This document shows positions 18,816-35,993 of a DNA stretch of 64,000 bases, in pieces. Source of the DNA: Polyangiaceae bacterium (lineage in GTDB: Bacteria > Myxococcota_A > Polyangia > Polyangiales > Polyangiaceae); the NCBI GenBank assembly GCA_033763455.1, contig JANRKO010000011.1, positions 32,001 through 96,000 on the forward strand, read 5' to 3'. Positions within the stretch are counted from its first letter, which is position 1, and each line of letters opens with the position of its first letter. The notes under the pieces are model-generated. The model did not search any database. It saw nothing but the letters and a program-made list of their open reading frames with translations, and was not told the DNA's origin. Both the position numbers and the translations under genes were made by a program.

Positions 18816-19956
18816 GTGCCGGCCCTTTCCACTTGGGTGCGTCAACCATCCGGCTTTCGTCGATATTGCCAGAGTAATCTTCGAACAACGCCAAAGCTTC
18901 TTTGATGCGCCGCTCCGCATCAGCCGAAGTGGCATCCACCACCGAGGGGACGATCATCACAATATTCTCGGTATCCTGGGATGCGGAGCGTTCAGAACCA
19001 AACAACAAACCTAAAAGCGGGATCTGGCTCAACCCCGGCAAGCCGGAACGCGTGTGGACTTCGCTCTTCGAGGTAAGGCCCGCTAAAATGAGCGATTGAC
19101 CCAGCTCCAGATTCACAATCGTGTCTAGCTGGGAGGTGGTACGGCCTGGGGCACCGGTGCCGCGGTCGTCCGCGAGATCGGAGACATCTGCGTGTACGTA
19201 GAGATCCAATCTTCCAGACTCCGAATCGTATTTCGGTTGGATCTGAAGTGAGCTCCCAAACGAGATCTGGTGAATGCCCGAAGAAAGGCTGCCTTGCACC
19301 GGGATATTTACCTCGCCACCCCCTGAAAAAGAGGCCTTTTCGCCGTTCGCCGTGATAACAGCAGCGTGGCGCATGAGCTTGGCGTAGCCCTTGGCCTGGG
19401 CAATATCGAGCTTAGGCAACGCTTGGGTCACCACAGCTGCGGCCGTCTCGAAACGATTGGCCACAAGATCATACTGAAGATTCAGCGTGCCGCCGCCCAA
19501 TGAGCCCGGCCAATCCATCCCCACCTGGTGGTTGTAACTTTTGTCCAGCTGGACAAAGTAGAAGTCTAACCGAATGTTGTCCCGCGCTCGGATGCCAGTG
19601 GGCGTCTCTTCTGCTTTTTCGGGCAGACCACTTTCTACTTCGATGCCGAACTGGCGCTTCGAACCATTTTGCATAATGAGCAGCAAAGAGGTTACGCCGG
19701 GGTTCATGGCTACCACCACAAAGTCTTTCGCATCCGGCGTTAAGCGAACATCTACGATACCCTTTACGCCTTCCGAAAAGCTCTGCACACCAGCGGCAGA
19801 CAGCACCTGCTGTTCACCTATTTTGAGGCGAATACTTTGAGCTGGGGCAGAGGCCTCCAAGCCGGAACCAACTTCGGCCCTGGCAGGGAAACACACCGTA
19901 GAAAGTAGCCCGCAGACGGAGGCCGATAGTGCAAAGGCTCGATACCATTTTCTCAT
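18802..19956 (-). CDS. cpaC: CpaC/RcpA-type secretin
   Basis: Signal peptide; NGEKASFSGGGE; GLPGLSQIPLLGLLFGS secretin motif; IVPSVV. Confidence 0.88.
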   Translation of the reverse strand: MRKWYRAFALSASVCGLLSTVCFPARAEVGSGLEASAPAQSIRLKIGEQQVLSAAGVQSFSEGVKGIVDVRLTPDAKDFVVVAMNPGVTSLLLIMQNGSKRQFGIEVESGLPEKAEETPTGIRARDNIRLDFYFVQLDKSYNHQVGMDWPGSLGGGTLNLQYDLVANRFETAAAVVTQALPKLDIAQAKGYAKLMRHAAVITANGEKASFSGGGEVNIPVQGSLSSGIHQISFGSSLQIQPKYDSESGRLDLYVHADVSDLADDRGTGAPGRTTSQLDTIVNLELGQSLILAGLTSKSEVHTRSGLPGLSQIPLLGLLFGSERSASQDTENIVMIVPSVVDATSADAERRIKEALALFEDYSGNIDESRMVDAPKWKGPAHGQR

Positions 19957-19989
19957 AATCTTTTCCTCAAACAGGGGTAAATTTCCGGA

Positions 19990-20760
19990 TTACTGAACGC
20001 GCTCGATCACGGGCACTTGCGGCTGTTTCCTGGCGGTAATGCTCACGTCCGCTGGAGTTTCAGTGCGGTGAATGTCCTCCCGGGTTGTGCCCGGAAGCTT
20101 TTCAAGCAGCGTGATGTCATCCGCATTTCTGAGCGAGAGGCGCAGCGTCCCACCCTGTTCTGCTTGAGTAATGGTCTGTGCTTGCTCCACTGACAAACTC
20201 AGAACCACCGAATTTGCTGAACCGTGCGATGAAGTACCTTCTGCGGAAGCCTCTGTGCTCCCATTCACAGCTAACACCAGAAGATTCTGCAGGAGCGTAA
20301 CCGTTTCCGATCCCGCGTGGGAGGTAAAAAGCAGATCGACGCGATCTCCTGGCCGTAGAAGCCCATCAAACAACTGATCCGAGGAGATATTGAGAGCACG
20401 CATTCCCTTCTGCACTAGGCCCGCCAGTGAGCGAGCCGCGACTTCCCCACCAGCCACATCACTCCACTCCAAGGTATCACCCGCCTTCAGCATGGCTGTG
20501 GTACGGACGCCCACAAGCTTTTCCGCGTCTTGTGCACGCACTTGACGGCGGTTCACATAGCTCGCAGGAACCTCTTGGACGGCCAAGTTATCGCGAGTGA
20601 TGGCAGCCCCTATTGCCAAATCACGAGCTGTGGAGAGCACGCGCACCTTCGGGCCGCCGGCTACATCCTGCTCGAGCCGCGTGAGGTAAACATGGCCGAG
20701 CCCCGCCGCCAGGGCGCCCGAGGCGAGGGAAACGAACACTAACGTTTTGCTGGATATCAT
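19990..20760 (-). CDS. cpaB: CpaB/RcpC Flp pilus assembly protein (SAF domain)
   Basis: ARDLAIG, GMRALNI, LLRPGDRVDL, LLQNLLVLAV, LRLSLRN. Confidence 0.93.
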   Translation of the reverse strand: MISSKTLVFVSLASGALAAGLGHVYLTRLEQDVAGGPKVRVLSTARDLAIGAAITRDNLAVQEVPASYVNRRQVRAQDAEKLVGVRTTAMLKAGDTLEWSDVAGGEVAARSLAGLVQKGMRALNISSDQLFDGLLRPGDRVDLLFTSHAGSETVTLLQNLLVLAVNGSTEASAEGTSSHGSANSVVLSLSVEQAQTITQAEQGGTLRLSLRNADDITLLEKLPGTTREDIHRTETPADVSITARKQPQVPVIERVQ

Positions 20761-20884
20761 AGCTGCCCCCCGTATCGACCTGCATCGGGGCCAGTTGCCG
20801 AAAAAAGCACCTGCTACGAAGTACGCAACTCAAGCATGGGCGTGCCGAAAGGGGCTGGAACCTGAAAATCCGAAAGCCTTTTTC

Positions 20885-21838
20885 ATGCAACGTCGTCAAT
20901 TCTTCTTCTTAGGCGCCGCATTCCTCGCCGCCTGCTCTCGCAACTCAAAGCCCTGTGCCGATTGCTCTCCGGGAGCACCGGTAAACGAAGCTCCGGGCGT
21001 CGTGCTCCGAGCGAGCTGGGGGCAAGAGCCCGGACAACTTGGCGTCTCAGATCCCGAAGAGGCAAATCCCGAGGCACCAATGAGCTTGGCGGTGGACCCG
21101 GAGACGGGCGAAGTCTTACTGCTCGATCAAGTCAACCAGCGAGTTCAGGTTTTCGCCGGTAGTTCGCTAAAGCACACGATCGCTCTACCTTCTGGCAATG
21201 CTCAAGATCTCGCATTGCTTCCGAATGGCAACATCGTAGTGGCAGATCGCTTGGTTCAAGGAGAATTGATTGAGCTCGATCGTGAAGGCTCGATTCAGAA
21301 TCGCACGGCGCTCGTGGGCGATGGCATCGAATTCCCAGCCGAGCTCACGGCTCTTTTCAGCAATGAGGAGGGGATTTGGGGGGAGCTTGGGAGCCGCTCC
21401 ATATGGCTCCTCGACAGCACCGGCACGGCGCCTGTGCAGCGCGAAATTCTGCCCGGCTACCCACAAGGCAGCCGCCTTTACAAGGCACAAGGCACCGGCA
21501 AAACGCTTTCGATCACTTCCGCTCCACGCAATGAAGCCACGGGCCAGAAGCAAACAACCTTACAATACCAGAGCGCCGTCACCAGCATCACAACACTTCG
21601 TGTGGACGCCCAAGGCAAGATCTACGTTGCCACCCGCCACCTCGTGGACGACGGAAAATCTTCGTCGGAGTCCTGCTGGATGGTGGTACTAGGTACGGAT
21701 CTGAAAGAAGAGCGTCGCTTCGAGCTGAAGCCGCGTGACGGAGCCCGCGAGATCTTCCGCGATGTTGAGATTGCTCAAACTGGGGCGATCTATCAGCTGC
21801 AGATCACGGCAGACGGTGCCTCGGTGGAAAGGTATTGA
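20885..21838 (+). CDS. Tat-type lipoprotein, NHL/beta-propeller-like
   Basis: MQRRQFFFLGAAFLAAC (twin-Arg plus lipobox); PMSLAVD...LLDQVNQRVQVF NHL-like blade. Confidence 0.75.
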   Translation: MQRRQFFFLGAAFLAACSRNSKPCADCSPGAPVNEAPGVVLRASWGQEPGQLGVSDPEEANPEAPMSLAVDPETGEVLLLDQVNQRVQVFAGSSLKHTIALPSGNAQDLALLPNGNIVVADRLVQGELIELDREGSIQNRTALVGDGIEFPAELTALFSNEEGIWGELGSRSIWLLDSTGTAPVQREILPGYPQGSRLYKAQGTGKTLSITSAPRNEATGQKQTTLQYQSAVTSITTLRVDAQGKIYVATRHLVDDGKSSSESCWMVVLGTDLKEERRFELKPRDGAREIFRDVEIAQTGAIYQLQITADGASVERY

Positions 21839-26794: not shown

Positions 26795-26801
26795 AGTATG
26801 C

Positions 26802-26830
26802 ATTATCAAAGTTTAGGTTTGATATTGCAA
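26802..26830 (-). promoter_or_regulatory. sigma70-type promoter with embedded palindromic operator, likely leaderless
   Basis: TTGCAA-17bp-GATAAT on the minus strand; TATCAAA-N7-TTTGATA inverted repeat; ATG 26794 near the predicted +1. Confidence 0.6.
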
Positions 26831-26992
26831 GGTCCGTTCTTCGGGGTGAGCCGCCACCTTGCCCTGAAAGCCTATCCCACCTCAGCACTTGGGAAGCAGC
26901 CCACCCAAGCCGGTGGAGAGGGTCAAGGATGGCGCACAGCCCTGAGCAGAAACTCCACAACTCTGAATACCCGTGGCCGAGTGGGGGGGCAT

Positions 26993-28813
26993 ATGGGTTT
27001 CCGAGACGAACGCGGCGCAATGATGGTGATCGGCGTCTTCATGGCGACGTTCCTGGTCGGCGTTCTCTACTACCTGATTGGCACCGCTGAAGCCGTTTTC
27101 TTTCGGGAAGGCATGCAAGACGCTGCCGATGCAGCAGCGCTCGGGGCGGCGATTGCCCACGCGCGTGGCATGAACTTTATCGCCCTCGTGAATCTGTTGA
27201 TGGCCGCCCTCGTGACGATCCTCTTGACCCTAAAGTTGATCGAGACGGTAGTTATCATTCTGATGGGTGTGCTCACGGCCCTTGCGGCCACCGGGGTTTT
27301 GGCACCTGGGGCCGCGCCCGCCATCACGGCGCTCGAGCCCGTACGCGCAAACGTGAACGCCTTACATGCGCAAGCGAAGGCAATTATCTTCCCGATGTTG
27401 CAGGGCATGAGCCAAGTGAGCAATGCGGTACGCGTGTCGACCCCAGCGGTTGCAGAGCTGCTGACGATAGCTGACGTAGTCAATGGCCGGGACCCTGCAG
27501 ATTTTGGGTTCATGTTGCCGATGCGGATGACGCTCCCGGTAGAGCGTGATCAGTTTTCCGTGCTGTGTGCACGCGCTGGGAGCAATCTCACCCAGCTCGC
27601 TCTCGCACCTTTCAGTGAAGGGGTTTTTACGGTAGTGCGACGCACCATCGATAGCGCGATGAGGAAGCTCGCGGGCTCTCTTTCGGGCTATTTCTGCGGT
27701 GATCCTGGCTCCGAGCCGCCTTCCGTGGAGTTACCCGTGAGGCGCGCGTTTCCTCTCACTGAGCTCGGGAACGCGTGTGTCAAGGAAGCGGAATCGGGCA
27801 CGAGCGATGGCCCAGCCTGTGCCAAAGCCAAAGCAGAAAGCGAACAGGCTGAACCCGACAGCCGCGGCGAATGCAGAAACCAGTGTAAGCCTGGAGAGCT
27901 CTTCGATCGCTACGCTTCCCTTGCGCGCGAGCAGTGCAACCCTGAGCAATCCAGCGGGATTGAATCTTGGAGATGGCAACAGGTGTGGGTAACGGAGAAG
28001 CTCAAGTGGTCCGAGCCTGATGGAGCATGGCTTTCCGATAGTTTGGTTACGAGCGATCAGCGCGTCACCTCAGGGGAAGCCTCACCGTGCAGGGCTTTGG
28101 GTCCTGACGCGACCTGGAACGCAGCTCGCCACACGCCCGAAGATCCCACCAAAGTGCTCCCCGTGTGTACCAGCGAACTCAAAGAGCCATCGCTATTTTT
28201 CCCCAAAACTCAGATCTTCACTCGCCGCTATCAGGCTGTCACGGATGTGTTCAATTGCCTGCGCAACGTGAACGCCACGTACAAGATGAAAGCCCCTGAA
28301 CGCGCCAGAACATCCGGCAAAGAAAATCCCTGGAAAGTGGAAGACGGCGTGGAGCTCGGCCAAGAAGCCTTTCAGATCCGCACCGTAGCTTTGGGTGGCA
28401 CGGGAGATTTGCGCGCTGAATCCGGCGTACGCATCGCCACTTGGGTGGATTGCAGCGGGGGCAAGAATGCCTCAAAAGAAGAATGCCAGGGTGCGGGCAT
28501 CTTTGCTGGCGCAGCTGATCTGCTCGGGCGAATGTCCGTGGCGCAAGCTGAATACTACTTTGAGGGGTCGGTAAAGCGCGAAGAATGGATGTGGAACATG
28601 AATTGGCGCGCGCGCCTGAAACGTTTTCGCCTGCCTGACACCCAACAAAAGCCCGAGAAGAACCCATCAAGTGCCGAGGCCGAACAATTCGGAGGCAAGA
28701 ATGCAGCGAAAAGCTCCGAAGAATCTTGTGGACGCGCCACCGGCAGCCAGCCCGGGCGCTGCCAGCAAATGACAAGCACCCTCGACGTGCTTTCTTCGGT
28801 AGTGAAGCACTGA
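26993..28813 (+). CDS. TadG-like (Tad N-terminal) Cys-rich pilus-associated protein
   Basis: DERG/AMMVIGVF, MQDAADAAALGAA...ARGMN Tad signature; start ATG 26993. Confidence 0.82.
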   Translation: MGFRDERGAMMVIGVFMATFLVGVLYYLIGTAEAVFFREGMQDAADAAALGAAIAHARGMNFIALVNLLMAALVTILLTLKLIETVVIILMGVLTALAATGVLAPGAAPAITALEPVRANVNALHAQAKAIIFPMLQGMSQVSNAVRVSTPAVAELLTIADVVNGRDPADFGFMLPMRMTLPVERDQFSVLCARAGSNLTQLALAPFSEGVFTVVRRTIDSAMRKLAGSLSGYFCGDPGSEPPSVELPVRRAFPLTELGNACVKEAESGTSDGPACAKAKAESEQAEPDSRGECRNQCKPGELFDRYASLAREQCNPEQSSGIESWRWQQVWVTEKLKWSEPDGAWLSDSLVTSDQRVTSGEASPCRALGPDATWNAARHTPEDPTKVLPVCTSELKEPSLFFPKTQIFTRRYQAVTDVFNCLRNVNATYKMKAPERARTSGKENPWKVEDGVELGQEAFQIRTVALGGTGDLRAESGVRIATWVDCSGGKNASKEECQGAGIFAGAADLLGRMSVAQAEYYFEGSVKREEWMWNMNWRARLKRFRLPDTQQKPEKNPSSAEAEQFGGKNAAKSSEESCGRATGSQPGRCQQMTSTLDVLSSVVKH

Positions 28814-28820
28814 GGCCGCC

Positions 28821-29327
28821 ATGAAGGATCTCCGCTCTGAAAGAGGCGTGGCAAGTGTCGAAGCCGTAATCCTCCTGCCAATCTTCCTTCTTTTGTTTTT
28901 TGGCATTCTTTACGTGGCGCGCGTGAACGACGCCAAGCTTGTCGCGCTCACCGAAGCTCGCAGCCAGGCGTGGATAGCCTCGATGCAGTCATGCGAAGGT
29001 TCTTCCGCTGAGCAAAATCAACAGCACCCTGAAGCTAAGGGAGTTCACGATGCCGTCGGCAAAGCGCTTACGCCCAGTACTCAATCCACCTCCAATACCA
29101 CGTCACTTCCCATTGGTGGCGTAATCGGCAAGATCCTGAATGCTCCGCTCAAAACCCTGTTTGGAGAAAGCGTCACCACACACGCTTCGCGCACCGTTCC
29201 CCGCCCGGCATTCCTCGGAGGCAAGGAAGCTACCGTTGTCGGCAGTTACCGGCTGCCGTGCAACCTCAAGCCGCAAACCCTCTGGGATGTAGCCTCTTCC
29301 CTCTGGGACGCAATCTGGCCCTTTTAG
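28821..29327 (+). CDS. tadE: TadE-family pseudopilin
   Basis: ERG/VASVEAVILLPIFLLLFFGI. Confidence 0.88.
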   Translation: MKDLRSERGVASVEAVILLPIFLLLFFGILYVARVNDAKLVALTEARSQAWIASMQSCEGSSAEQNQQHPEAKGVHDAVGKALTPSTQSTSNTTSLPIGGVIGKILNAPLKTLFGESVTTHASRTVPRPAFLGGKEATVVGSYRLPCNLKPQTLWDVASSLWDAIWPF

Positions 29328-29427
29328 CCAGGCCGCCGCTGCGCATTCAGAGGCCTTCCAACGATGAATCCGCACAACGCCTGAATCCGTACCACCAGCC
29401 ATTCACCTCTTCGGAAAGCTTGCTCGC

Positions 29428-30336
29428 GTGACCTTCCTGTTCCTCTTGTTCTCATCTCGGCTTCGCTCACACCTATTTGCACTCCTTCGCGTGGGAGCGC
29501 TTCTCATCGTGTGCAATGTGCTTTTAGCGTTGTTTTGTTTGAGCCGAGCGCGGGCTGACATCACCGAAGCCTTGCTTTCTATGGGCGCTCCCTTCCTGAA
29601 CCTTCCGGGCAGTGAAGCCCACGGTGTTCAGTCTCTACAGGTAAACGGCGCAATATTTCACACCCAGAGCATGAGCCTACCTCAGCCTTGGAGGCGCGTG
29701 CTCGCGGCAGTAGCCAAAGAGTGCAAAAAGAGCGGGCTCGTTGAGCTTGACCAAAAGGGCTGGAAGGCGGTGGCCTCAGCTGACCCCACGGGAAGCGCTT
29801 CGCAGGTATTGCGTGGAGTGTGGCAGGTTGAAGGTGAAGACGAAGGTGTCTTAATTTGCCTTCAAGGCCAACACCCCACACATCTGCAAGAATGGCTCAA
29901 GGCACTGCAAGATTTTGCTCGCACCGGAGCGCTCTCAACCTTAGGGCGCCCTCGCTACGTTCGGGTTCGCCGCACCAAAGACGGAGGATCCGTTTTGCTC
30001 ACGGTGTGGTCCGATGCGGTCCTGAACCTCAAGCGTATGTTTCCGGAAAGCGGAGATTCCCCAGGGAAAGACGCTGAATGGGCTGCGCGTCCCCCGGAAA
30101 GCCGCCGCGTTTTTTCCGCTACAACCACCGCGGCTGGGCCTGCCGTTACAGCTTATCACTCCCGGCAGCCTCCCGAAACCCTGCGCACCTTCTACCGAAA
30201 TGCTCTCACCAAAGATCACTGGGCGTTGGCCTCTGGTACCGAAATTTTGAGTGGCACACGCCCCGATCAGGAGATCCGAGTTCAAGTGCAACGCGATGCG
30301 AACGGTGGGAGCTGGGTCACACTGAGTCAGCTGTAG
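29428..30336 (+). CDS. Hypothetical exported protein following tadG/tadE
   Basis: Long ORF with N-terminal hydrophobic segment ending ARA; co-oriented. Confidence 0.6.
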   Translation: MTFLFLLFSSRLRSHLFALLRVGALLIVCNVLLALFCLSRARADITEALLSMGAPFLNLPGSEAHGVQSLQVNGAIFHTQSMSLPQPWRRVLAAVAKECKKSGLVELDQKGWKAVASADPTGSASQVLRGVWQVEGEDEGVLICLQGQHPTHLQEWLKALQDFARTGALSTLGRPRYVRVRRTKDGGSVLLTVWSDAVLNLKRMFPESGDSPGKDAEWAARPPESRRVFSATTTAAGPAVTAYHSRQPPETLRTFYRNALTKDHWALASGTEILSGTRPDQEIRVQVQRDANGGSWVTLSQL

Positions 30337-30379
30337 GTCTAAAATAGTTCTTGCGCAAACGTGCAGGCTCTGCAAATCT

Positions 30380-30463
30380 ATGTCGGCAATGTTTAGCGTT
30401 CGCACTAACACTACGACTACCACCACCCTTCGGGGCGGTATGGTCGTTGTGTTTTCGCGCTAA
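30380..30463 (+). CDS. Thr-rich leader peptide (MSAMFSVRTNTTTTTTLRGGMVVVFSR)
   Basis: 7 Thr codons (6 consecutive), ending 105 nt upstream of the ThrRS start; too short for the ORF track. Confidence 0.85.
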   Translation: MSAMFSVRTNTTTTTTLRGGMVVVFSR

Positions 30464-30560
30464 GCCGCATCAACTCAACCCCCACATCCCGCCCTTGCGT
30501 GCGGGACCGTTGGTGTTGGCTCCGTGCGCTTCGGCTTCTTTACACCGAACCACAGGAGCC
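30407..30560 (+). promoter_or_regulatory. Ribosome-mediated attenuator of thrS2
   Basis: Hairpin over the Thr codons with a cUUCGg loop; GCCGCATCAAC:GTTGGTGTTGGC helix competes with GGCTCCGTG:CACAGGAGCC, which sequesters the AGGAG SD. Confidence 0.75.
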
Positions 30561-30568
30561 TTTCACCC

Positions 30569-31765
30569 ATGTCCCATGAAGATCATCGCCAGCTTGGCAA
30601 CCGTCTCGACCTTTTTCACTTTCAGGAAGAAGCCCCGGGTATGGTTTTCTGGCACAAAAATGGCTTAGTATTGCATCGAATCCTCGAAGCTCGAGCACGC
30701 CAAGTGTTCGAACTCCAGGGGTACGAAGAGGTACGAACACCGCTGCTGTTGCGTCAGCCTATCTGGGAAGCGAGCGGGCACTGGGAGCACTTTGCTGGAG
30801 GCATGTTCAAGGTCTCTGATGAGGCCGTGATGGCCGCGCTCAAGCCAGTGAATTGCCCAGGACATGTTCAGTTGATTCAACACCGCTCCGTTTCGTATCG
30901 CGATTTGCCCATAAGGCTTGCCGAGTTTGGCAACGTGCACCGCGACGAACCAGGCGGATGTTTACATGGCCTGTTACGGCTCCGCCAATTCACACAAGAT
31001 GATGGGCACATCTTCTGTACTCTCGCCCAAGCGCCTGCAGAAATCACTGCGTTTTGCCGCAACGTGGCGCCCTTCTACGCAGATTTCGGTTTCAGCGAGA
31101 TCCACATTGCCCTATCCACACGGCCTGCAGCTAGAGTTGGCGACGATGCCCTATGGGATCGCGCCGAGGCCATCCTCACAGAGGTGCTGCAATCTATGGC
31201 TCTTCCGTTCGAGGTCGCCGAAGGAGCAGGAGCATTTTACGGGCCCAAAATTGAGTTCTCGCTCAAAGACAACCAGGGGCGCAGTTGGCAATGCGGCACT
31301 GTACAATTTGATTTCTTCATGCCAGAGCGTTTCGGCCTAGCCTACACTGCGCAAAACGGCGCTCGTGCCCCGCTGGTCATGTTGCATCGCGCACTCTACG
31401 GAAGCTTGGAGCGTTTCCTCGGAGTGCTCCTAGAGCAGCACGGCGCAGCTCTTCCTCCTTGGCTAGCGCCCCTTCAGATCCTCGTGCTTCCCATCGCTTC
31501 GGCCCAAGTAGAGCCTGCCCATGCGTTTGCCCAATCGCTGCGTGAAGTAGGCCTTCGTTGTACGGTCGACGAACGCAAACAAAGCTTGTCGGACAGGGTT
31601 GCCTCTGCCCACGAGCGTGCCGTCCCCCTCTTGGCAATCCTCGGGCCCAAGGAGGTGCGCGAGGGGCACATCGCCGTTCGCCGCGGCGGCACTCAACATT
31701 CCTTACCGTTGGGCGATGCCTTGGCAGAGTTTTCCCGTCTGTGTCAGGCGCCCAAGTTGGGCTAG
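30569..31765 (+). CDS. thrS: Threonyl-tRNA synthetase, short form (catalytic plus anticodon domains; no TGS/editing domain)
   Basis: Starts at DHRQLG; KPVNCPGH, FTQDDGHIF, GAFYGPK, HRALYGSLERF, WLAPLQ; about 398 aa. Confidence 0.93.
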   Translation: MSHEDHRQLGNRLDLFHFQEEAPGMVFWHKNGLVLHRILEARARQVFELQGYEEVRTPLLLRQPIWEASGHWEHFAGGMFKVSDEAVMAALKPVNCPGHVQLIQHRSVSYRDLPIRLAEFGNVHRDEPGGCLHGLLRLRQFTQDDGHIFCTLAQAPAEITAFCRNVAPFYADFGFSEIHIALSTRPAARVGDDALWDRAEAILTEVLQSMALPFEVAEGAGAFYGPKIEFSLKDNQGRSWQCGTVQFDFFMPERFGLAYTAQNGARAPLVMLHRALYGSLERFLGVLLEQHGAALPPWLAPLQILVLPIASAQVEPAHAFAQSLREVGLRCTVDERKQSLSDRVASAHERAVPLLAILGPKEVREGHIAVRRGGTQHSLPLGDALAEFSRLCQAPKLG

Positions 31766-31777
31766 TCTCACCCGCGA

Positions 31778-32917
31778 ATGCGTGCACGAACTCAACCACG
31801 CCGCTCCTCTCAGGCTGAGCACCCTCCAGCATCGCACGCACTGAGTGTTCGTCCGAAGGGCGCCAAGAGCCACGGCGCCCCGCCAACTCGTTTGCACGAG
31901 CTCCGGCGCGAACACGAGCGCCTGCTCCGGGAAATCGCCAAGAAGAAGCAATCGCTAGAAGCAACGCTCGCAGCTGCGCGCGCGGCCGAGGTGGAGCTAG
32001 AAGCCAAGCTCGCACCCCTGCACGCCAACATCGCTCGCTCCAAAGCCGAAATTCGGGCCATTTTCGAGTTCTTCTGCGGCCCGAAAACGCCGCTTTCTCG
32101 CAAGAACGCAGCCCAGGTGAGGCGCCTCTACTTGCAGATGATGCCTCCGGAAGATGAGCTGGAAGGCGCCGACGAAGAAGACGCGGTTTGGGAGGACGAC
32201 GCACCTTCCTCCAACCGCGGCGGCAAGGAACGCCAGCCGCGAGGTCATGCTTCAGAAGATGAGGATTACAGTCACCGCTCCACGGCGCGAGATGTAGCCT
32301 CCGCCACCAAACCACAAGCCTCCACGGACGGCTTGTTACGAGGGCTATTTCGCCGTCTCGCTGTAGCCCTCCACCCCGACAAAGTTCAGGCCGAGGCCGA
32401 GAAGGATGAGCGCACTCACCTCATGAAAGAGGTAACGCGGGCCTACGAATCGAGCGACATCGCTCGCTTACTGGAGCTTGAGCAAAAGTGGCTAGCGGAT
32501 GCTCCCAGCAGCGTGGGCAATGAGGTAGCCAAAGAAGTCGAAGCCACACTCGCTGCGGCCAATCGTGAGCTTCGCCAGCAAACCCGTGCACTCACTGCCG
32601 AGATTAAGGCCATCAAGCAAAGCACTCCCACCATGGTCCAGGTCAGCCAGCGCCGTGGGCGAGCACCCGTCACCGAGGCGGATATGATGCTGGATGAGCT
32701 CCAACGCATGGCCAAAGTGCTCGAGCACATCCAAGCCTTTACCGTAGATTTTCGCGAAGGCCGCATCCCACTGAGCACGTTCCTACGGGGGCCAGCCATC
32801 GATCCTGATTTGCTGCCTCCAGAGGAAGACACCTTCCACGAGGTTATCGAGTTTGTCGTCCAAGAAATGATGGAGCGAGGCCCCAGGCGCCAAAAGCGGC
32901 GGGGTCGGAGGCGTTAG
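31778..32917 (+). CDS. Coiled-coil protein with internal J-domain (HPD)
   Basis: LFRRLAVALHPDK...MKEVTRAYE. Confidence 0.75.
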   Translation: MRARTQPRRSSQAEHPPASHALSVRPKGAKSHGAPPTRLHELRREHERLLREIAKKKQSLEATLAAARAAEVELEAKLAPLHANIARSKAEIRAIFEFFCGPKTPLSRKNAAQVRRLYLQMMPPEDELEGADEEDAVWEDDAPSSNRGGKERQPRGHASEDEDYSHRSTARDVASATKPQASTDGLLRGLFRRLAVALHPDKVQAEAEKDERTHLMKEVTRAYESSDIARLLELEQKWLADAPSSVGNEVAKEVEATLAAANRELRQQTRALTAEIKAIKQSTPTMVQVSQRRGRAPVTEADMMLDELQRMAKVLEHIQAFTVDFREGRIPLSTFLRGPAIDPDLLPPEEDTFHEVIEFVVQEMMERGPRRQKRRGRRR

Positions 32918-33853: not shown

Positions 33854-33867
33854 ACTTTCCAAACTTG

Positions 33868-33940
<73 letters not shown>

Positions 33941-33960
33941 CGGGATGTTTGGGGAGCCGG

Positions 33961-34028
33961 AGCCTATCTAGGGGCTTTTGGGTGTCAACCACGGAGATCA
34001 TTGACCCACAAAGCATCGTGATTATGTT
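33961..34028. promoter_or_regulatory. Back-to-back sigma70-type promoters for the tRNA (minus) and dnaK (plus)
   Basis: Minus: TTGACA-16bp-TAGGCT; plus: TTGACC-16bp-TATGTT. Confidence 0.55.
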
Positions 34029-34088
34029 GCGCCCTGACTCGCGGGAACCCACCAAAACGGCGGCTCGCGTTAGCGGAGAACTTCTATC

Positions 34089-35993
34089 ATGGGCAAAATC
34101 ATCGGAATCGACTTGGGAACCACGAACAGCGTCGTCGCGGTGATGGACGGCAAAGAAGCCAAAGTCATCGTGAATGAGGAGGGCTCGCGGATCACCCCGT
34201 CGGTCGTAGCCTGGGACGACAAGGGCGAGGTCTTGGTGGGTACCATCGCCAAGCGCCAAGCCGTCACTAATCCTGAGAACACGGTCTACTCGGCGAAGCG
34301 CTTCATCGGTCGGCGGTACTCGGAGGCGAAGGGCGATTCGGCTCGCGTCCCGTACAAGCTCCTCGAAGGCAAGAATGGGGATTGCGCCATTGAGGTGCGC
34401 GGCAAGAGCATGGCGCCTCCCGAGGTGAGCGCGAAAGTGCTGCAGAAGCTGCGGAAGGCGGCGGAGGATTACCTCGGTGAATCGGTCACCGAAGCCGTCA
34501 TTACGGTCCCTGCGTACTTCAACGATGCTCAGCGCCAGGCCACCAAAGATGCCGGTAAGATCGCCGGGCTTGAGGTAAAGCGCATCATCAATGAGCCTAC
34601 CGCCGCGGCGCTCGCGTACGGCCTCGATAAGAAGAACAACGAAGTCATCGTTGTGTATGATTTCGGCGGCGGCACTTTCGATATCTCGGTGCTCGAAGTG
34701 GGCGACAACGTGGTGCAGGTTATCGCCACCAACGGCGACACGCACCTCGGCGGTGACGATGTGGACGACGAGGTCATGAAGTGGCTCGCGGCTGAGTTCA
34801 AGCGAGACACCGGTATCGACGTTTCAGCCGATAAGATGGTGATCCAGCGCCTCAAAGATGCGGCGGAGCAGGCCAAGATCGAGCTTTCCTCCAAGCAGGA
34901 AACAACCGTCAATCTTCCCTTCCTCACGGCTGACGCGAGCGGCCCCAAGCACCTTCAGAAAGTGCTCACCCGCGCGAAGCTTGAGCAGATGATTCAGCCG
35001 CTCATCGAGCGCACCATGGAGCCTGTGAAGAAGGCTCTCGCGGATGCCAAAAAGCAACCGGGAGATATCGACGAAGTGGTGTTGGTAGGTGGTTCCACGC
35101 GCATCCCGCTCGTTCAGCAGACCGTCACCAAGTATTTCGGCAAGGAGCCGCACAAGGGCGTAAACCCGGATGAGGTCGTGGCCATTGGCGCGGCCGTCCA
35201 AGGCGGTGTCTTGGCTGGCGACGTGCAAGATGTGGTGCTGCTGGATGTAACCCCGCTTTCTTTGGGCGTGGAAACGCTCGGCGGCGTGATGACGGTGATG
35301 ATCCCGCGCAACACGACGATCCCCACCCAGAAGAAGGAAGTCTATTCAACTGCCGCTGATAACCAGACGTCCGTGGAAATCCACGTACTTCAGGGGGAAC
35401 GCGCCGAATCACGCTACAATCGCACGCTTGGCAAGTTCCACCTAGAGGGTCTTCCTCCCGCTCCCCGCGGCGTGCCCAAGGTAGAGGTTACCTTTGACAT
35501 TGATGCGAACGGCATTCTCAGCGTCAACGCTAAAGACACCGCTACCGGTAAAGATCAGCGCATCACCATCACCGCTTCGAGCGGCATCAGCGAAGCCGAC
35601 ATCGAAAAGATGGTCAAAGACGCCGCTGCGCACGAAGAGGAAGATAAGGCGCGCCGCGAGGCCATCGAGAAGCGCAACCGCCTCGATAACATGTGTTACA
35701 CGCTCGAAAAGCAGATCAGCGAGAACAAAGATAAGCTTGGCGGCACTGATCTTTCGGCTGTGGAAGGCCTCATCAAGGAAGGCCGCGAAGCCATCGAGAA
35801 GCAGAACGACGAAAAGGTCTCAAGCGTTCTTGAGCGGTTAGAGAAGGAAGCGCACACCATGGCCAGCAAGCTGTACGAAGCAGCAGGTGCGGGCGCCGCG
35901 CCGGGCGGCGAAGATGCTGCACCTTCGGGCGAGAAGGAAAGCAAGAAGAAAAAGGCCGACGTCATCGACGCTGAGTTCGAAGAGACGAACTAA
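34089..35993 (+). CDS. dnaK: Chaperone DnaK (Hsp70)
   Basis: [44 protein letters not shown]. Confidence 0.99.

Follow-up and report, generated by a model that had tools for sequence, protein, structure and literature searches.

Threonine-Rich Leader Peptides with a Predicted Ribosome-Binding-Site Relay Upstream of Short, Second Threonyl-tRNA Synthetase Genes in Myxobacteria

We analyzed a 64,000-nt stretch of a Polyangiaceae genome (the window; all unlabeled positions refer to it), in which a Thr-rich upstream open reading frame (uORF) precedes a gene for a second threonyl-tRNA synthetase (ThrRS). Comparative folding of related leaders makes it likely that the two belong to a stand-alone cassette that restricts synthesis of a backup ThrRS to times of charged tRNA-Thr shortage, mainly by attenuating translation via a relay of RNA segments. 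The cassette would consist of a promoter, a near-leaderless Thr leader peptide, and the short ThrRS. In the proposed relay, a classical 1:2/2:3/3:4 attenuator core would be joined by an anti-ribosome-binding-site (anti-RBS) segment (5) that pairs either with segment 4 or with the RBS (6). With ample Thr-tRNA, the ribosome would run through the uORF and cover segment 2 (or leave, whereupon 1:2 would reform); helices 3:4 and 5:6 would then form, with segment 5 hiding the Shine-Dalgarno (SD) sequence and the start codon (OFF). Under Thr shortage, the ribosome would cover segment 1 as it stalls toward the end of the Thr run, one of the final several Thr codons occupying its A-site. The stall would expose the GGCGG core of segment 2, segment 2 would capture segment 3, and the freed segment 4 would capture segment 5, leaving the RBS open (ON, i.e., 2:3 plus 4:5). 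The features of the window are as follows.

30351..30356, + strand: likely sigma-70-type -35 box, TTGCGC; TTG spacing conserved across leaders
30389..30463, + strand: leader peptide gene (24 aa, MFSVRTNTTTTTTLRGGMVVVFSR); homologous peptides in 70 distinct leaders
30404..30427, + strand: segment 1; seven Thr codons in eight; 5' arm of the 1:2 hairpin
30432..30453, + strand: segment 2; 3'-terminal half of the uORF, whose GGGCGG core (30433-30438) is the partner of segment 3
30464..30474, + strand: segment proposed as the switch in the initial annotation; window-specific basal extension of the 3:4 hairpin, pairs with 30509-30520
30487..30494, + strand: segment 3, TCCCGCCC; pairs with segment 2 (ON) or 4 (OFF)
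30497..30506, + strand: segment 4, GCGTGCGGGA; downstream arm of the 3:4 hairpin; would act as anti-anti-RBS once freed
30518..30529, + strand: segment 5, anti-RBS, GGCTCCGTGCGC; pairs with segment 4 (ON) or the SD region (OFF)
30554..30571, + strand: segment 6; Shine-Dalgarno GGAG (30555-30558) and start codon (30569)
30569..31765, + strand: second ThrRS (398 aa); consists of the catalytic and anticodon-binding domains, without the N1/N2 editing domains

The initial annotation of this DNA, made from the letters alone, had called the downstream gene a second ThrRS, and this was borne out. The product matches TIGR00418 (422 bits; cut-off, 384) only from profile position 170, its alignment starts at about Escherichia coli residue 243, and a full-length thrS with approximately 40% identity, followed by an infC-like frame, lies on contig C78 of the same genome (6.56 Mb; 59% GC). 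This housekeeping gene (656 aa; C78, ~19200-21365) is located 3' of a tRNA-like sequence that by eye is tRNA-Val. The closest relatives by short ThrRS protein were named myxobacteria. In a quick tree, a branch with a support of 100 separated 30 short forms from 25 housekeeping enzymes. Residues were compared between 141 short forms and 85 housekeeping sequences (E. coli numbering); C334, H385, and H511, which we take to be the zinc ligands of ThrRS, and R363, E365, and R520, presumably its motif residues, were kept in all 141 short forms. In the related housekeeping enzymes, H337, which we assume to be a borrelidin-related position, was changed (Gly/other) in 11 of 12. The short form is a putative backup threonyl-tRNA synthetase that is presumably active. 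Constructs of E. coli ThrRS comprising residues 242 to 642 were assayed as active according to the accessible text of PMC11252418; the short-ThrRS family differs from these at M332, K577, and R583.

The uORF lies where the initial annotation had placed it, at 30380-30463, and translates as MSAMFSVRTNTTTTTTLRGGMVVVFSR (27 aa, read from ATG 30380). The frame stands, with ATG 30389 as the likelier start: in homologs, an M or V opens the peptide some six codons ahead of the Thr residues, and the spacing to an upstream TTG also favors it. In 51 of the 70 leaders, a TTG begins 35 to 39 nt 5' of the uORF start, versus 1 to 6 of 69 in four control windows, and it is often part of TTGACA or TTGCCA; in the window, TTGCGC is found 38 nt before ATG 30389. 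With a weak -10-like hexamer at 30374-30379, transcription would start near 30386, and ATG 30380 falls inside the putative promoter. An SD-like motif ahead of the uORF was detected in 2 of 70 leaders, and the peptide would be translated in a leaderless fashion or with a 3-nt leader. A scan of 30200-30700 also gave a different consensus promoter site at 30316-30345, so a longer uORF form (from ATG 30380) is possible.

Seven of eight codons in the window's tandem cognate run are Thr, and the leader peptides contain 4 to 11 Thr residues each (70 distinct leaders). The Thr run does not appear to be a chance feature because only four short frames genome-wide have at least five consecutive Thr codons and because uORF homologs precede all 21 additional short-ThrRS genes that a protein search identified. 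This last result also answers a check named in the initial annotation, i.e., conservation of the uORF before orthologs. The four best genome matches (Myxococcus qinghaiensis, a Kofleriaceae, a Polyangiaceae, and Sorangium So ce513) were all short ThrRS genes with the leader, and the remaining 76 loci of the same search resembled full-length proteobacterial enzymes, judging by the long open frames that precede them. Two ThrRS matches were present in 19 of 400 other genomes of the phylum, and the sequences around the best 30 ThrRS matches in this set were examined. Among these best 30, 17 of the second copies in the 19 genomes were short forms, and the uORF was present in 17 of 17; of the remaining two, one was a contig-edge piece of the full-length type and one lay outside the examined set. 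Two single-match genomes with short open frames were also recorded, both at contig ends.

A DNA pattern for the uORF alone matched 95 metagenome stretches. Among the 80 of these 95 loci that were listed, 57 had a short ThrRS directly downstream, 4 ended within 180 nt, 14 looked like chance matches in long frames, and 5 (L149, L173, L145, L161, and L177) were decayed cassettes in which the leader is followed by an interrupted or missing thrS. After removal of nine duplicates, 70 distinct leaders (22 genomic and 48 metagenomic) were obtained. Of these, 48 were selected by a pattern covering segments 1 and 2; the leaders are kin, so counts are given below rather than P values.

With a leader model (R1), the window's own genome yielded no second copy (best other match, 25 bits versus 78). 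In 150 genomes of the class, a short ThrRS was present in the locus for four strong matches (besides the window) and one weak match, and the other 15 weak matches were without one. Three Burkholderiaceae records carry the same cassette, scoring 55 to 81 bits on a leader model built without them. The cassette occurs on plasmid records (L233, the conjugative plasmid of Burkholderia sp. M701; L234, Caballeronia sp. SBC2), which suggests horizontal spread. A search of 301 genomes of one betaproteobacterial family at E 1e-150 returned none, at a threshold probably too strict to indicate absence. Plasmids of Acetobacter (L235) and Thioclava (L236) carry full-length thrS genes, with no leader-model match, beside "transcriptional repressor" or hisI paralogs; these neighborhoods are suggestive of zinc-starvation clusters.

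The two proteins flanking the cassette in the window match none of the 21 other loci; the unit is therefore the promoter, leader, and gene. Twelve nucleotides after the thrS stop, a 379-aa gene begins (31778-32917, + strand) whose HPD motif, seen by eye, is suggestive of a J-domain protein (no match in Pfam or NCBIfam); it could be co-transcribed with the second thrS and is not conserved beside the relatives. A Tad/TadE-like gene cluster (26798-30336, + strand; TadE match for 28821-29327) lies directly upstream of the cassette. In the region 33867-35993, a tRNA-Ala(CGC) on the minus strand adjoins a DnaK-like gene (34089-35993, by eye).

The RNA at 30370-30590 folds better than 200 of 200 shuffles (z, -3.55), and the mutually exclusive 1:2, 2:3, and 3:4 helices are present as in a classical attenuator. 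In the homologs, the segments correspond to the Thr codons (1), the uORF's 3' half, which has a GCGG(G) core (2), CCCGCC (3), GG(A/C)CGGG (4), a pyrimidine-rich anti-RBS (5), and the SD sequence with the start codon (6). Each cognate duplex was compared with duplexes formed with a shuffled partner and with a partner swapped between leaders; these tests and the in silico blocks used alignment anchors and 69 leaders, L003 being left out because of a long insertion. The 1:2 hairpin (30407-30453; UUCG loop, 30429-30432), in which a C-UUCG-G loop connects the Thr codons to their partner 30433-30453, just as first described, was better than the shuffled partner in 68/69 leaders and than the swapped partner in 33/69, since the repeats are near-invariant. 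The 2:3 helix (30433-38 with 30489-94) exceeded shuffled partners in 69/69 and swapped partners in 53/69. It was the only consensus helix, itself nearly invariant, that RNAalifold recovered from the 69-row alignment, because subfamilies are shifted in that alignment.

Partner-specific complementarity was also observed for the helices that make the choice. The 3:4 helix (30487-92 with 30501-06) was better than shuffled partners in 66/69 and swapped partners in 62/69, with a C-G to T-A change in 5/67. For the 9-bp 4:5 helix (30497-30505:30521-30529), the values were 61/69 and 49/69, and the pair types vary (e.g., G-C, G-U, and A-U at one position and C-G and G-C at others); the pair tally picks the best register, so paired fractions taken from it are circular. 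The 5:6 helix (30518-23 with 30555-60; P, about 1) exceeded shuffled partners in 65/69 and swapped partners in 60/69, in agreement with the SD sequestration proposed in the initial annotation. The nucleotides of segment 5 that are bound by segment 4 and by the RBS overlap by at least 3 in 66/69 leaders. Five control pairings gave no excess over shuffled or swapped partners in the 69 leaders.

To follow the switch, we walked a ribosome along each uORF, with the RNA masked up to 12 nt past the A-site (an assumed footprint). Across the 70 leaders, the RBS opening cost was 12.9 kcal/mol with no ribosome, 13.2 kcal/mol with the ribosome at the stop, and a mean of 9.9 kcal/mol at Thr codons. The cost at Thr codons dropped by >1 kcal/mol in 61/70 leaders and rose in 2; the minimum fell one to three codons before the last Thr, and the effect was gone one codon after it. 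In silico, this supports the direction first proposed, in which a shortage of Thr-tRNA would turn the gene on in vivo. Blocking segment 3 left the RBS open in both states (8.7/9.1 kcal/mol), blocking segment 4 meant that it never opened (14.1/12.6 kcal/mol), blocking the segment 2 core cut the mean drop from 3.9 to 1.5 kcal/mol, and shuffling the spacer left no drop (n = 69 each). Family-wide (n = 69), these outcomes are those expected from the relay. Even in the ON state, opening takes an average of about 9 kcal/mol. Of the Burkholderiaceae leaders, one switched clearly in the folding model, one weakly, and one not at all.

The classical 1:2/2:3/3:4 core also fits a transcription attenuator, in which 3:4 would act as a weak or factor-assisted terminator (or Rho would act on untranslated RNA), 2:3 would be the antiterminator, and RBS masking would be secondary. 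We consider this rather unlikely. At least five T residues in the 8 nt just after segment 4 are found in 17/69 leaders, and Rfam Thr_leader gives weak scores (27 to 28 bits versus a cut-off of 55) in two of four related loci; a U-rich tail is, however, absent in 52/69, and 30200-30700 of the window holds no terminator-like site, as the initial annotation had also seen. In Burkholderia arboris (L207:1321-1503; NZ_CP101525.1), the same 3:4 hairpin is followed by six T, an intrinsic terminator combined with the 4:5/5:6 RBS switch. This leader gives a clean 4:5/5:6 switch (7.4 versus 15 to 16 kcal/mol), and its short ThrRS keeps M332. The partner-specific complementarity of 4:5 and 5:6 would be unneeded for termination alone, yet it is kept even in this U-tract copy. 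Factor-dependent termination is possible in the window. Our inference is that an RBS relay was added to a classical core and that some copies have kept termination.

The window's own leader is less straightforward. At equilibrium, its full-length RNA is closed whatever the ribosome state (opening cost at Thr codons, 10 to 15 kcal/mol), it is among the 9/70 leaders without an equilibrium drop, and blocks applied to it alone did not reproduce the family pattern. The growing transcript behaves differently. With the transcript ending at 30532, the probability of 4:5 is 0.91 to 0.97 for A-sites 30410-30422 and ≤0.08 elsewhere; with ends at 30556-30566, as the SD sequence emerges, it is 0.76 to 0.86 with the A-site at 30416 or 30419. 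In the stop state, 5:6 reaches 0.87 to 0.95 from end 30560, and the no-ribosome state likewise closes 5:6; from end 30568 onward, 5:6 is favored everywhere. Leaving the ON fold is estimated to require crossing a barrier of 12 to 14.5 kcal/mol, versus 1.4 kcal/mol for the stop-state fold. One snapshot speaks against the relay: at end 30545, 4:5 has a probability of 0.9 in the stop state. Since this leader is closed at equilibrium but switches as a growing transcript, the switch here would be kinetic; in this genome, the decision probably falls while the RNA is being transcribed, with a kinetic barrier then preserving it.

The lack of an equilibrium drop, together with the existence of decayed cassettes (those 5 of the 80 loci listed), is also what would be expected if the family were a genuine attenuator and the window copy were decaying or locked OFF by an over-stabilized RBS hairpin, or if the uORF sensed a general slowing of ribosomes. 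Such a reading seems improbable: the window copy has an intact gene and uORF, the promoter spacing, and each of the four helices, its 4:5 pair types differ from those of relatives yet still pair, and against general slowing, nearly every sensing codon encodes Thr in each of the homologs.

The switch first proposed for the window is very improbable. It held that 30464-30474, by pairing with 30509-30520, frees the SD sequence except when masked by a ribosome that has reached the uORF stop. These segments, 30518-30526, and the SD hairpin are all at the places given, and the helix does form: when 30437 occupies the A-site, the probability of the SD hairpin is ≤0.26 up to transcript end 30566. For A-site positions 30437 and 30449, the probability of the helix itself is as high as 0.99, against about 0 to 0.2 for 30413-30422 once segment 5 is made; because it forms mostly with the ribosome past the Thr run, it extends the 3:4 hairpin and is not a Thr sensor. 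The helix is not conserved (better than shuffled partners in 37/69 and swapped partners in 32/69), and blocking the corresponding post-stop segment keeps the switch (mean drop, 3.5 versus 3.9 kcal/mol). Under the proposed switch, the RBS should be open in ribosome-free RNA and also once the ribosome has passed the Thr codons; folding gives closed states in both cases (12.9 and 11.7 to 12.6 kcal/mol, respectively). The proposal also lacks the conserved 2:3, 3:4, and 4:5 helices.

Over the same span, Thr content is 1.4% (n = 22) and 2.1% (n = 119) in short ThrRS sets, compared with 4.0% (n = 12) and 3.5% (n = 73) in housekeeping sets. The window enzyme has 10 Thr versus 18 in its own housekeeping counterpart, placing it in the lowest 1% of 2,203 long six-frame open reading frames. 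This halved Thr content fits synthesis during Thr-tRNA shortage. The short ThrRSs of L100, L088, L003, and L101 are nearly Thr-free (0 to 1 Thr in ~400 aa), and one sequence is without even the otherwise invariant T482; those of the Burkholderiaceae are not Thr-poor (12 to 15 Thr).

Active-site changes run through the short forms. M332V is present in 141/141, N333S in 134/141 (the window enzyme keeps N), and Y313F in 138/141, the last also in 14 housekeeping sequences; K577 and R583 are replaced family-wide. No documentation of a role of R583 was found in the literature searched. Y392 and M411 of human ThrRS are described as borrelidin contacts (PMC4389257); by alignment, Y313 and M332 would correspond to these, the M411 mapping having been made in this analysis. 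A more far-reaching view, which we put forward only tentatively, is that of a self-inducing rescue module, in which an attenuator core and an RBS-level switch would drive an editing-free, Thr-poor ThrRS that is inhibitor-insensitive or Ser-charging, leading to inducible resistance or regulated mistranslation. M332V, Y313F, and N333S would then give inhibitor insensitivity or Ser charging so that translation continues, with both outputs in one Burkholderia copy and translation only in most myxobacterial copies.

As the reason why the cell keeps a second ThrRS, starvation backup has about an even chance; inhibitor tolerance is a weaker possibility, tolerated Ser mischarging is unlikely, and some other reason is more unlikely still. 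Thr auxotrophy was rejected as an explanation because thrC, the pathway gene searched, is present. ThrZ of Bacillus subtilis is a second ThrRS that uses T-boxes, unlike the leader-peptide control proposed for the short ThrRS. Another second ThrRS, ObaO, owes its obafluorin resistance to G463S (according to the accessible text of PMC11252418); ObaO-type resistance was rejected because the family lacks this change (Gly in 140/141 short forms and Ala in 1). T2 of Anabaena, as described in the part of PMC4787780 available, is a second, editing-impaired ThrRS for stress that is edited in trans by the housekeeping enzyme, which provides a precedent for such editing for the short ThrRS; unlike the latter, T2 is zinc/Zur-controlled and keeps the N2 domain. 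In the window's genome, no free-standing tRNA_SAD editing domain was found, matches being restricted to C73 and the C78 ThrRS.

Among known systems, thrL of the E. coli thr operon and attenuators of the pheM-pheST type have tandem cognate codons and 1:2/2:3/3:4 alternative helices and are ON when the ribosome stalls. The present leader resembles thrL (Rfam RF00506) and pheM-pheST in its leader peptide, alternative helices, GC-rich core, and predicted ON state at the stall. It differs from them in sensing Thr only, in controlling a synthetase paralog, and in having two extra segments that would relay the decision to the RBS; moreover, unlike in thrL, a U-tract after 3:4 is absent in the window and most relatives. 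Within 29500-31000, neither Rfam Thr_leader nor T-box gave a match at E values up to 5. Lopatovskaya, Seliverstov, and Lyubetsky reportedly predicted in 2010 classical attenuation upstream of thrS, among other genes, including in beta- and deltaproteobacteria; their models are said to be of the terminator/antiterminator type and may cover members of the short-ThrRS leader family.

In mycobacterial polycysteine attenuators (as outlined in the available part of 10.1101/834739), the homopolymer uORF of a leaderless small open reading frame senses charged tRNA and releases a sequestered RBS. The present leader shares with them a near-leaderless homopolymer uORF (here putative) and a conserved RBS-masking helix. 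In the polycysteine system, the stalled ribosome blocks the sequestering structure, whereas here 2:3 and then 4:5 would relay the signal from ~130 nt upstream of the SD sequence; amino acid, target, and phylum also differ. By analogy, our leader may work like a hybrid of thrL-type and polycysteine translational attenuators. In ermC/cat translational attenuators, uORF stalling refolds hairpins and frees the SD sequence (according to the same source). Stall-driven refolding would thus be shared, but their signal is an antibiotic on the ribosome and not a cognate-codon run. The thrL of Streptomyces lividans, located before thrS, is leaderless, has two Thr codons, and is without a clear Rho-independent terminator, its mechanism being left open in the accessible text of PMC8079986. 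It is similar to our leader as a Thr-containing leader before thrS and different in its two Thr codons and unrelated peptide.

A Thr leader before thrS is therefore already known from Streptomyces, and a relay with RBS segments was not found in print. Neither the leader family nor the relay was found in the literature searched (subscription papers and supplements being outside reach), and the accessible parts of PMC1262725, PMC4833913, PMC2965389, and PMC9437257 do not describe the family.

The cassette is an example, backed by covariation, of a classical amino-acid attenuator that two added segments would have turned into a translational switch, and natural copies exist with a single output and with both. 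It bears on how attenuators without a U-tract work in high-GC bacteria, and the leader would serve as a biosensor for Thr-tRNA or ThrRS inhibitors. In addition, it delineates a myxobacterial clade of second ThrRS enzymes that are proofreading-less and Thr-poor, with members in cultured Myxococcus and Sorangium strains. The trigger of this clade is now predictable, which opens the reason for duplicate synthetases to direct testing.
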